From the NCBI GenBank assembly GCA_016432325.1, contig CP066684.1, positions 256,001-320,000 of the forward strand: a stretch of 64,000 nucleotides of DNA. Reading direction: 5' to 3'. Positions 25,014-58,693 of the stretch are shown here, in pieces (position 1 is the first letter of the stretch; every line of letters starts with the position of its first letter). The stretch is from Candidatus Aenigmatarchaeota archaeon (GTDB lineage: Archaea > Aenigmatarchaeota > Aenigmatarchaeia > PWEA01 > JACQIF01). Position numbers and translations under genes: made by a program. The notes beneath the pieces were generated by a model. That model did not search any database. It was not told the origin of the DNA and worked only from the letters and a program-made list of their open reading frames with translations.

Positions 25014-25228
25014 CACAGCTCATAAGCTATCGCGGCCTGATGAGGCTCTACGAACTGTGGCGCGGCGGCTCGTCCATGCCTCCGGGATGGCGCGAGTCGG
25101 TTCGCCGTTACGTCGTTCATAAGCGCTGCCGCGTCCTGATTGACAGCGACGGCGTATCGCAGCTCGCCCAGGCGGAGCAGATGGCCAAGATGATGTTCGG
25201 TGGTGCGGATGCGCAAATGCCTGTTTGA
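25010..25228 (+). CDS. Small hypothetical element protein
   Basis: ATG overlaps the upstream TGA; GGAGG RBS. Confidence 0.45.
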   Translation: MTQLISYRGLMRLYELWRGGSSMPPGWRESVRRYVVHKRCRVLIDSDGVSQLAQAEQMAKMMFGGADAQMPV

Positions 25229-36231: not shown

Positions 36232-36675
36232 CTACCGGCTTCCCAGTCGAAGCGCCATCAAGGAATATTTTTTAGATAGCCTATAGATTGTCCTGAATCC
36301 GAACCTCTCGTAGAAACGCACATTGGTTGTGGTAAGAAGTATCAATGAGGCCTTGTTCCTGCCCTTCTTCGTCTTGATTTCCTGTATCGTTCGTTTGATT
36401 AGTTCTGTGCCAATTCCTTCTTTCTGGCGCGTCGGCTCGACGTTCACCCAGAATATATGGTAGACATGCCAATCCATCCAAGATTGGATAAATCCCGCGA
36501 ATCCAACCATTCTTCCATTCTCTTCTGCAACAAGGTACCGAGGCGGTATGATCGGATTTTTGAAGGCGGCTTTTATTTCCCGTCTTGCAGCAAGCTCGAA
36601 TGCCTTCGAATAGTTCAAACCGACAATCCTGGCGGCTTTTAGAATTTCATGCTTCCTGACGTATCTTATCTTCAT
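36232..36675 (-). CDS. GNAT acetyltransferase
   Basis: VNVEPTRQKEGIGT, FYERFGF. Confidence 0.85.
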   Translation of the reverse strand: MKIRYVRKHEILKAARIVGLNYSKAFELAARREIKAAFKNPIIPPRYLVAEENGRMVGFAGFIQSWMDWHVYHIFWVNVEPTRQKEGIGTELIKRTIQEIKTKKGRNKASLILLTTTNVRFYERFGFRTIYRLSKKYSLMALRLGSR

Positions 36676-36772
36676 ACTATCCTGAGATGGGATTGCAGAG
36701 CTTACGATATAAAAGTAAATGGCGCTGATGCTTGAAACGGCGGTTTCATATCAGCGCGTCTGTTGAATTGGT

Positions 36773-36983
36773 TGGCGCTGAGGGGGAGATTCTCGTGAAC
36801 CCGTCGTAGGGGTTCAAGGGGCGCACGCATGTGCCACTTGTTTGAACTCCCGCGGGCTTGCGCCCACCGGTTTTCGAGACCGGCGCAGTTGGTCCGCCTT
36901 CTGCCCGCAGGCGTATTTTTTCCCGCGGGTTTTTGCGCGGATATTGCGCAAAAAGGCGCTAAACCAAGCTTTGCTACCTCAGC
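36773..36983 (-). tRNA. tRNA-Ser(CGA) with two introns: D-arm 21/22 at 36889-36959 and T-loop 59/60 at 36790-36840
   Basis: Spliced: GCTGAGG-TA-GCAA-AGCTTGGTTTA-CTGC-G-CCGGT-CTCGAAA-ACCGG-long variable arm TGGGCGCAAGCCCGC-GGGAG-TTCAAAT-CTCCC-CCTCAGC-G-CCA. D-arm BHB GGTT/GACC flanked by CGCC/GGCG. Confidence 0.93.
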
Positions 36984-37240: not shown

Positions 37241-37298
37241 AATACTGTTCATGAAACCTGCGGTTTCAAGATTCCCTCGCGGGGCTTGGTGAAGTGCG

Positions 37299-41911: not shown

Positions 41912-42040
41912 CCGATACTCCCCACTGGCATTCGCTTATAAAGCGGCGAAAGGTTAAATACTCTTCTTCAGGAGTGTGCCGACAGATGAAGTGCATGAAA
42001 CCACGTTTCATACTTCCCGCGAACCATTGGTGATGACCGC

Positions 42041-42466
42041 ATGAAGTGCCTTTCAGTAAAGCAACCGTACGCAGACCTCATCCTTTCTGGAAGAAAGACC
42101 ATCGAAAACCGCCACTGGAACGCGGCGTATCGGGGCGACCTCCTCATACACGCGTCCGCTAACGTGGACGCCGAAGGCTGCAAGAGGCTCGGAATAGACC
42201 CCGCGAAACTCGCCAAGGGCGCTATTCTAGGCAAGGTCAGGATGGTCGACGTCATAAAATACGACTCGCTGGACAAGTTCCGTTTCCTTTACACAAAACA
42301 TTTCGCGCCTGACGCGTATTACGACGAAGGCAAGACATTCGGCCTTGTGATGACGCAACCGCAGAGGTTTCCCAAGCCCGTCCTTTTGAAGGGAAGGCTC
42401 GGGATGTTCGAGGTCCGTCTCACGCGAACAGGACGAATAGAAACCAACGCGAAGAGGCAGAAATAA
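42041..42466 (+). CDS. ASCH domain protein
   Basis: LSVKQPYA...GRKTIENR...YRGDLLIHAS, KGRLG. Confidence 0.92.
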   Translation: MKCLSVKQPYADLILSGRKTIENRHWNAAYRGDLLIHASANVDAEGCKRLGIDPAKLAKGAILGKVRMVDVIKYDSLDKFRFLYTKHFAPDAYYDEGKTFGLVMTQPQRFPKPVLLKGRLGMFEVRLTRTGRIETNAKRQK

Positions 42467-58348: not shown

Positions 58349-58620
58349 GGGCTTGTAACTCAGCTTGGTAGTCTCCCAAAGCGAAAGGGAGGCCATCAGT
58401 ATCGGGCTTTTAACGGCGTTAAAAGCGCTGAGGTCTCGAAGACCGATGAATGGAGGAAACCCGAGAGTCGTGGGTTCGAAACTTTTTGCGCACGTCCGCG
58501 CAAAAACTTTCATGAAAAGTACGCTGCCGCCGGTGCGCGTGCGCGGATTTTTCAGGCGGGTTTTTGCGCGTCGAGCGGATGTGATTGGCGCAAAAAGCTG
58601 CAATCCCACCAGGCCCGCCA
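58349..58620 (+). tRNA. tRNA-Lys(TTT) with three introns: D-arm 22/23 58372-58397, anticodon 37/38 58413-58458, T-loop about 58479-58601
   Basis: Spliced: GGGCTTG-TA-ACTC-AGCTTGGTA-GAGT-A-TCGGG-CTTTTAA-CCCGA-GAGTC-GTGGG-TTCGAAT-CCCAC-CAGGCCC-G-CCA. BHB helices TGGT/GCCA, CTTT/GAGG, GGTT/AGCT; T-loop junction uncertain by 1-2 nt. Confidence 0.92.
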
Positions 58621-58693
58621 TAAATTTCAAAGGTCGGGCCGTTGGAAAGCGAAGCTTTCCTTGAGGCCCGCCATTACGTTCACGGTGCGAAGA

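Follow-up and report, generated by a model that had tools for sequence, protein, structure and literature searches.

The REP, REPIN and BIME repeats, mobilized by RAYT (Y1 HUH) transposases, are short gene-less hairpin sequences with a conserved stem, present in tens of copies at mostly intergenic positions. The left end of IS608, a member of the IS200/IS605 group (characterized by a TnpA/TnpB gene and insertion without duplication), is reportedly ordered as flank, spacer of ~15 nt, flank-complementary segment and hairpin, with a guide of 4 nt that is fixed for each element. MITEs, Correia elements, Rickettsia palindromic elements and MIRUs are small non-autonomous sequences with direct repeats at their borders, tolerated within or beside genes; MITEs have terminal inverted repeats and a target-site duplication of fixed length, and MIRU-like units restore translation starts. 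Two structures belong to tRNA biology itself: the acceptor-TΨC minihelix, a continuous helix of ~12 bp (7 from the acceptor and 5 from the T stem) with a 7-nt T loop and a single-stranded discriminator and CCA, and the archaeal bulge-helix-bulge (BHB) tRNA introns (two 3-nt bulges with a 4-bp helix between them), related short structured sequences that occupy many tRNA positions and show local complementarity to exons. Intron transposition in Thermoproteales tRNAs has been reviewed (PMC4090602), and how introns reach archaeal tRNA genes was still called an open question in a 2026 preprint (bioRxiv 10.64898/2026.10.13.758758).

The unit examined here follows a tRNA-Ser(CGA) gene in the window, a 64,000-nt stretch of an 874,869-bp single-contig genome (G000; 56% G+C, ~90% complete). 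It belongs to a dispersed family of insertions with repeats at both borders, carries an inverted copy of its flank, and is of a kind that is dispensable at orthologous sites. The full architecture, found at ~25 sites in G000, comprises a gene terminus (X1), a spacer of ~15 nt (S), an inverted copy of the terminus (X'), a core hairpin, a linker of 0–4 nt and a direct copy of the terminus (X2); X1, spacer, X', GAAAC-type core and X2 at a period of ~45–57 nt are present in the Ser unit and in copies from four other genomes (G019, G017, G013 and G009). As with REP, REPIN and BIME sequences, these are short, mostly intergenic hairpin repeats with a conserved stem, without genes and in tens of copies, but there is no detectable Y1 transposase, each copy holds its own flank in direct and inverted form, the sites are gene termini, and the period stays near 53 nt. 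The succession of flank, spacer, complement and hairpin would appear to parallel the IS200/IS605 left end, but X' is 6–12 nt long and different at every site, an extra direct copy (X2) is present, and TnpA and TnpB are lacking: the best PF01797 match (E = 0.15, 11.6 bits) is below cut-off, as is PF07282. MITEs and their analogs share the small size, non-autonomy, bounding direct repeats and tolerance in or near genes, and MIRU-like units the restoration of translation starts. In the present family, however, there are no terminal inverted repeats, the start of the spacer and the end of the linker not being complementary; the inverted repeat is formed by an internal segment against the flanking duplicate, and the direct repeats that flank every clean copy differ in length (7–28 nt) while the period is held constant. 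The tRNAs of G000 do carry multiple introns, in line with the BHB introns of other archaea, but the tRNA-Ser unit is no part of the mature tRNA, its relatives include copies at protein-gene starts, and it displays in place of a BHB one 3-nt bulge opposite 1 nt (0–4 nt in other copies). Finally, like a minihelix, the unit is a hairpin in which the top 5–6 bp of the cognate acceptor stem precede G and CCA, but G73 and C74 are engaged in pairs, a T loop is missing, the helix consists of 8+6 bp with an internal loop, and the pairing is not kept in the sister species. No description of an X1-S-X'-core-X2 architecture was found in full-text literature searches, and this hairpin insertion family looks undescribed.

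The tRNA-Ser(CGA) locus

The unit is preceded by a two-intron tRNA-Ser(CGA) gene on the minus strand, whose 3' end lies at window position 36773. Run on the window, ARAGORN and Rfam detected neither the unspliced gene nor any other tRNA, and in the genome as a whole ARAGORN (intron mode) and Rfam recover only ~8–12 tRNAs. Joining three exons by hand (36983–36960, 36887–36841 and 36789–36773) yields an 88-nt sequence that ARAGORN calls as tRNA-Ser(CGA), with acceptor GCUGAGG/CCUCAGC, G73 and an encoded CCA. The exon boundary at intron 1 is supported by the D-stem pair, A12-T23 here versus C12-G23 in the related tRNA-Ser of the sister species G001. The parts of the locus, in window coordinates, are as follows.

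36960–36983, minus strand: exon 1, acceptor 5' strand GCTGAGG and 5' part of the D arm (spliced ARAGORN call)
36888–36959, minus strand: intron 1, 72 nt, at the D-loop/D-stem junction, made of hairpin repeats (splicing)
36841–36887, minus strand: exon 2, D-stem 3' strand, anticodon arm CTCGAAA, long variable arm, T stem and TTCAAA (splicing)
36790–36840, minus strand: intron 2, 51 nt, in the T loop (splicing)
36773–36789, minus strand: exon 3, T-stem 3' strand, acceptor CCTCAGC, G73 and CCA, with X1 as the last 9 nt, 36773–36781 (splicing)
36758–36772, minus strand: spacer S, ACCAATTCAACAGAC, with the family TTCAA motif, part of the insertion and not of the native trailer (S motifs shared across units)
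36750–36757, minus strand: X', GCGCTGAT, inverted copy of ATCAGCGC (sequence and fold)
36733–36748, minus strand: core hairpin TGAAAC-CGCC-GTTTCA, TGAAACCGCCGTTTCA (21 exact copies of the pattern genome-wide versus 0 in the control)
36720–36729, minus strand: A followed by X2, ATCAGCGCCA, a direct repeat of the tRNA 3' end that pairs with X' (sequence and fold)
36706–36719, minus strand: native T-rich trailer, TTTACTTTTATATC, after X2 (T-rich runs like those opening the trailers of unit-less tRNAs)
36232–36675, minus strand: open reading frame of a GNAT acetyltransferase, ATG at 36675

Both introns are non-canonical, and sequences resembling the intron-containing stretches of this gene occur elsewhere in the genome.

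Minus-strand reading of all parts upholds the layout given for the unit in the original prediction, including the recurrence of the tRNA 3' end: X1 (TCAGCGCCA, 36781–36773), the last 9 nt of the tRNA, has an exact second copy at a period of 53 nt. A single A separates X' from the core, and an AGC linker separates the core from A and X2. The pairing differs from the 12-bp (6+6) helix with free discriminator and CCA that had been envisaged. Folding of a 61-nt stretch gives an 8-bp outer stem (GCGCUGAU/AUCAGCGC) and a 6-bp inner stem at −18.3 kcal/mol (z = −5.7; 0/200 shuffles as stable), with a 1x3 internal loop between the stems and a 4-nt closing loop, CGCC, in the minimum free energy structure. 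In this predicted fold the discriminator G and the first C of X2 pair with the GC of X' and CA alone is unpaired; since the equivalents of G73 and C74 are engaged, the unit offers no free NCCA.

There is no T-run between the tRNA CCA and the hairpin, the native T-rich trailer coming after X2. Because of this, and because unit-less tRNAs have similar T-rich trailers, the pre-tRNA probably runs through the unit, and the co-transcription originally proposed is likely on these sequence grounds. The TTTACTTTTATATC trailer is probably the terminator of tRNA-Ser(CGA), and probably also serves as the TATA-like box of the downstream GNAT gene. The start of this gene lies ~31 nt past the TTTTATAT box, which is the T-rich trailer of the tRNA itself, placing the hairpin unit between tRNA-Ser(CGA) and a putative promoter/terminator (window 36675–36719, minus strand). 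Another core hairpin, TGAAACCTGCGGTTTCA, occupies window positions 37251–37267 on the plus strand, between the stop of a TtuB-like gene (GG-TAG) and the GGTGAAG ribosome-binding site of a TtuA-like gene; its flanking repeat is weak (score 7, period 87).

The hairpin family in the genome

Two surveys were carried out, one of CCA-ended 9-mers repeated 30–90 nt downstream, which also exposed reverse complements of start codons as repeated words, and one anchored on GAAA[C/G]-loop-[C/G]TTTC hairpins. A generic scan for a direct repeat plus an inverted 6-mer gave 80 cases versus 78 in the control, with no excess, and the architecture was therefore anchored on the core hairpin. GAAA[CG] hairpins number 82 in G000 versus ~14 in dinucleotide-matched simulations, GAAAC being the third commonest 5-bp hairpin stem of the genome, and the exact core TGAAAC-N4-GTTTCA is present in 21 copies versus 0 for a reversed control. 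At 23 of the 82 hairpins X' and X2 form an outer stem of 5 Watson-Crick bp or more, where 3 are expected from swapped flanks, and among the ~25 clean copies the period is 51–57 irrespective of repeat length (7–28 nt). Considering also that an exact 9-mer repeat within 30–90 nt is expected ~2e-4 times per tRNA, the core and hairpin counts argue that the tRNA-Ser unit is not a product of chance.

Family copies are found at tRNA 3' ends, at the 5' end of a tRNA-Pro (25029–25094) and at many protein-gene starts. The proposed survey downstream of the genome's tRNAs did reveal cognate 3'-end repeats, at ~11–12 of ~46 tRNA 3' ends, a heuristic count since most tRNAs here have several introns. Every one of these units begins right after the CCA. 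Members of the family in G000 include the following.

Window 58611–58674, plus strand: tRNA-Lys(UUU) unit, AGGCCCGCCAT / AAATTTCAAAGGT / CGGGCC / GTT / GGAAAGCGAAGCTTTCC / TTG / AGGCCCGCCAT, period 53
Window 41986–42049, minus strand: protein-gene-start member, GCACTTCAT twice at period 55 around ATGAAACGTGGTTTCAT
Genome 60969, 292773 (tRNA-Ser(CGA)), 246820, 314620 (tRNA-Lys), 515963, 700798 and 29818: units at tRNA 3' ends
Genome 641118 and 830062: nested tRNA-trailer units
Genome 698587: a further unit
Genome 24819: degenerate tRNA-trailer unit
Genome 683123: unit with a different hairpin

The tRNA-Lys unit has the layout and spacing of its tRNA-Ser counterpart, as had been noted; the preceding tRNA is multi-intron, carries the anticodon loop CTTTTAA of Lys(UUU) and ends at 58620. 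This tRNA gene spans window positions ~58350–58620 on the plus strand and holds several introns of TTTTTGCGC/GCGCAAAAA-type hairpins. In the gene-start member at 41986–42049 the repeat is the reverse complement of ATG and the first codons, and the orthologous site in G001 is without the hairpin. In the nested units (641118–641209 and 830062–830157) two extra TTCGAA-type hairpins lie between X' and the GAAAC core, extending the periods to 91 and 95 nt.

Presence and absence in the sister species

G001 (540 kb in 90 contigs, searched whole) is the only genome of the same genus that was compared. Its orthologue of the tRNA end at G000 246820 is empty, GGTCCACCA running directly into TTTATGTTTTTAT, as is that of 29818 (CCCGCACCA followed by CTGTAAAG), and its tRNA-Ile and tRNA-Phe, the orthologues of 830062 and 683123, have no unit. 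Thus four of five comparable tRNA 3' sites are empty in G001. Past the empty sites the sequence is like that following X2 in G000, which assigns the spacer S to the insertion. The one tRNA-end unit common to both genomes is that of the other tRNA-Ser (G000 60969), where the G001 copy (X' GCGATGG, X2 CCCGCGCCA) has undergone non-compensatory decay and its X2 no longer equals the tRNA end; the expectation that pairing would be kept in relatives thus fails at the sole shared tRNA-Ser site. Turnover extends beyond tRNAs, and the majority of gene-start sites likewise lack the unit in G001. Most of the 25 hairpin sites with both flanks placed in G001 are shorter there by about one unit, inspected alignments being empty in G001 at 67036, 72173, 122282, 214105, 297997, 392979 and 757410.

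Two shared protein-gene units are informative. At 178691 the working start is on the X1 side, the X'/X2 stem contains a compensatory change from A-T to G-C, and X1 has drifted. At 394877 the working start is on the X2 side, X1 and X' form a perfect 12-bp hairpin in both species, with four species-specific differences that leave pairing intact, and X2 has drifted. In both cases the antisense arm X' remains paired with the non-working copy. The working start codon of the latter unit (G000 394813–394877, G001 L060:~2900–2990) is not the same in both species. In G000, X2 ATG has become ACG and the X1 ATG is accordingly used, reading in frame through the hairpin; in G001 the frame terminates within the unit, and a new start follows at the X2 ATG. 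A further difference is seen at G000 321266–321323, for which the G001 counterpart (L040) is a plain hairpin made of both repeats and the inverted copy, without the 18-nt GAAAC core; this comparison of sequences suggests that the core may insert into, or be lost from, the center of a pre-existing palindrome, a form of nesting.

The tRNA-Ser(CGA) locus itself has no orthologue in G001 by DNA and protein searches with the tRNA-Ser region and the GNAT gene, the sole match to the tRNA-Ser body being a Ser(GGA) gene interrupted by a contig end. Metagenome scans with the TtuA protein and with a 30-nt stretch of exon 2 found no closer relative.

Relatives elsewhere in the order

Exact cores number 21 in G000, 2 in G001 and 0–5 in other genomes of the same order, and are almost absent from other orders of the class. 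The same architecture stands at gene starts in G019, G017 and G013 (genus g4) and in G009 (g8), with periods of 43–57 nt, for example as CATTTAATCACC / TTTAT / TGATTAAA / core / TTTAATCACC; across the whole G019 genome (44% G+C) it accompanies ~5 of 31 hairpins, all at gene starts. The core stem is conserved across genera, its loops drifting with genome composition, and the stem sequence, like the S motif, is conserved between families of 44% and 56% G+C. This sequence conservation suggests recognition by a factor, or a function.

A tRNA-Ser trailer module lacking the GAAAC core is found in two g4 genomes. In G019 it reads CAGCGCCA-TTTGGCTTTCATAATGAGAGCC-TTAATATTCAAAGGCAAA-TGGCGCT-CCAGCGCCA, and the G013 copy is near-identical; the whole CCA is paired in both. 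Immediately 5' of its X' stands TTCAAAGGCAA, a motif that also fits the G000 tRNA-unit spacers, among them TTTCAAAGGTC, TTCAAGGCAA and TTCAACAGAC, the S motifs being common to the tRNA-trailer units of G000 and the G019/G013 modules. tRNA-Ser modules therefore occur in two families of the order. The g4 copies sit on different isoacceptors, a Ser with a GCTGGGG acceptor in G019 and Ser(CGA) in G013, and the orthologous Ser(CGA) genes inspected in G019, G017 and G004 are without a module. X2 of G013 has C at position −9, where its own tRNA has T, as expected if a donor tRNA-Ser had been copied by way of the 8 nt in common. Judged from sequence, the module is apparently old in the order and moves between tRNA genes without being fixed to tRNA-Ser(CGA). 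In a class-wide search for repeated CAGCGCCA, matches outside the order look like chance and lie in seemingly non-tRNA sequence, judged on the matched stretch; a match in G002, of the same order, is in non-tRNA, apparently coding sequence.

Proposed mechanism and alternative explanations

The tRNA-Ser unit is probably a copy of a family of gene-less hairpin insertions of ~45–57 bp that persists because it neutralizes itself and is spread by the host. Such a module would land immediately behind a gene terminus, in this case the tRNA-Ser(CGA) CCA end, bringing with it the TTCAA spacer, X' (the terminal 7–9 nt inverted), the core TGAAAC-N4-GTTTCA and X2, after which the native trailer resumes. 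The predicted empty allele is CCTCAGCGCCA followed directly by TTTACTTTT. RNA polymerase would read past the unit to the old T-tract, and in the resulting 3' trailer X2 would capture X' within a two-tier hairpin (about −18 kcal/mol), which would keep X' from invading the acceptor stem; the real tRNA end would stay free, and the trailer would be removed by ordinary 3' processing. Folding is consistent with this scheme. For the spliced tRNA with its full trailer both the cloverleaf and the trailer hairpin are kept (−58.4 kcal/mol), whereas for the natural sequence ending just before X2 the prediction has X' paired to the 3' strand of the tRNA itself, at the cost of the acceptor stem. On this reading X2 would act as a built-in decoy for the antisense arm X', and it is only in this sense, and not as a decoy for enzymes, that the word decoy of the original prediction is apt. 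The apparent minihelix with CCA would then be a by-product of the self-neutralizing design rather than an RNA made for a tRNA-related task, and this design, by making the insertion harmless, would account for its persistence. Copies sequestering the working end of a gene should be lost, a loss that would explain why the working end is on the spacer side in the standard copies examined, the exception being 394877, in which X' pairs with X1.

Mobility itself we infer from the presence/absence pattern and the donor base in G013. Profile searches of G000, a ~90% complete genome, detected no Y1 transposase, TnpB or Cas1, and for this reason spread by the host is favored, presumably by replication or repair copying between sites sharing terminal bases (template switching), with the three copies of the terminus kept alike by correction through the repeat and the palindrome. 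Some observations run against this scheme, among them the failure to detect a mobilizing enzyme and the recurrence of tRNA-Ser modules in two families of the order. Both Ser units of G000 match their own tRNA at −9, which simple copying from a donor does not predict, and the exact start after CCA in all tRNA units also counts against it, selection alone being insufficient as an explanation. Together with the conservation described above and the constant period, these two features leave a functional or factor-dependent reading with a modest probability. A broader proposal is tentative, and we consider it possible but rather doubtful: that the family is an undescribed form of gene-less mobile DNA copying termini in both orientations, so masking its antisense arm and sparing the working end of the gene, spread by host replication or repair enzymes only and a source of archaeal tRNA introns. 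A narrower version would give the old tRNA-Ser-linked module, common to two families of the order, a real role in handling the 3' end of tRNA-Ser.

The original prediction put forward a cognate tRNA-like minihelix. In a functional version of this view the CCA-ended hairpin would be freed from the pre-tRNA and serve as a processing aid (for example RNase P or tRNase Z entry), an enzyme decoy, or a substrate for CCA addition or serylation. The hairpin is indeed stable and non-random, its co-transcription is likely with no T-run ahead of it, ~11–12 of ~46 tRNAs have a unit that always starts right after CCA, and tRNA-Ser genes of another family in the order carry a related module with perfect X'/X2 pairing and the same S motif. 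A dedicated minihelix is nonetheless improbable, for the identical architecture appears at protein-gene starts and a tRNA 5' end, G001 lacks a unit at four of five comparable tRNA ends and the shared Ser site has decayed without compensation, the orthologous tRNA-Ser(CGA) genes of G019, G017 and G004 manage without a module, and the structure itself is ill-suited, with G73 and C74 paired (the entire CCA in g4), a 4-nt loop instead of a T loop and an interrupted helix. A second alternative is a cis-regulatory RNA or DNA device, in which a host protein binds the TGAAAC/GTTTCA hairpin, sets the pairing of X' with decoy or terminus, and tunes translation starts and tRNA maturation as a regulon. 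Its three-part layout resembles a switch of SD, anti-SD and anti-anti-SD elements, compensatory changes hold X' on the decoy copy, and the core stem is conserved across genera while loops drift with composition. However, sites turn over rapidly between sister species, copy number is uneven (21 exact cores in G000, 2 in G001, 0–5 elsewhere), pairing of X' with the decoy is so favored that switching seems unlikely, and no binding protein is known, so we regard this device, too, as having little chance of being correct.

Two further explanations address the direct repeat. Removal of exactly one period would restore an intact tRNA end, and both introns of tRNA-Ser(CGA) are made of related hairpin repeats, as might be expected of an intron-like element cut by the tRNA splicing endonuclease at equivalent positions of X1 and X2, with X2 providing the mature 3' end. 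This is very unlikely, since the predicted fold has just a 1x3 internal loop and no bulge-helix-bulge, bulge sizes differ among family members, and the tRNA is already complete at X1, with which its body pairs better (7 bp) than with the X2 context. A direct repeat of a tRNA 3' end is also the mark of integrase att sites, and the unit was alternatively put forward as a minimal att-bounded relic. It is a repeat-bounded insertion, as that proposal held, but its origin as an att-site duplication around an almost wholly deleted integrase element is extremely improbable: the repeat is just 9 nt and the interior 44 nt, the interval holds no integrase or coding remnant, what lies inside belongs to a family that recurs at ~25 sites with the period fixed, and the inverted copy X' is foreign to att sites.

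Several other candidates were considered and rejected. Reading frames through the hairpin differ between copies, contrary to a leader peptide; the sequence has neither C/D boxes nor GA pairs of the kind expected for a box C/D sRNA or a k-turn; a CRISPR repeat was dismissed on sequence and on the absence of Cas1; and a primer-binding site, for which X' would complement the tRNA 3' end including CCA, is at odds with the position of CCA outside X' in most G000 copies.

As a self-neutralizing insertion the unit accounts for an odd tRNA trailer without any new RNA function. The family is unusual in that its insertions sit precisely at gene termini, whether the CCA end or the 5' end of a tRNA or a start codon, and in that they carry the terminus in direct as well as inverted form, seemingly built so that the gene stays undisturbed. 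It may bear on the origin of archaeal tRNA introns and, if units are shown to move, would provide a concrete and testable route by which short structured DNA enters archaeal tRNA genes. For annotation it carries a warning, as most tRNAs in these genomes are missed by standard finders and duplicated starts yield false upstream open reading frames.

Other hairpin arrangements

Several tRNAs of G019 (L126–L167; for instance at concatenated minus-strand positions 406589, 417688 and 502258) are followed by two hairpins without a repeat of the tRNA end. These trailers consist of CCCTTTTTC...GAAAAAGGG and then AACTT-GGAAA[GC]-loop-[CG]TTTCC. In G000 the promoter-like TATA word GAAGG(G)TTTAAATA(G) is duplicated at 757307–757376 and 850343–850412 with a 56-nt period around a CCGC-AAGG-GCGG hairpin, and these duplications may represent another family, one that duplicates promoters.
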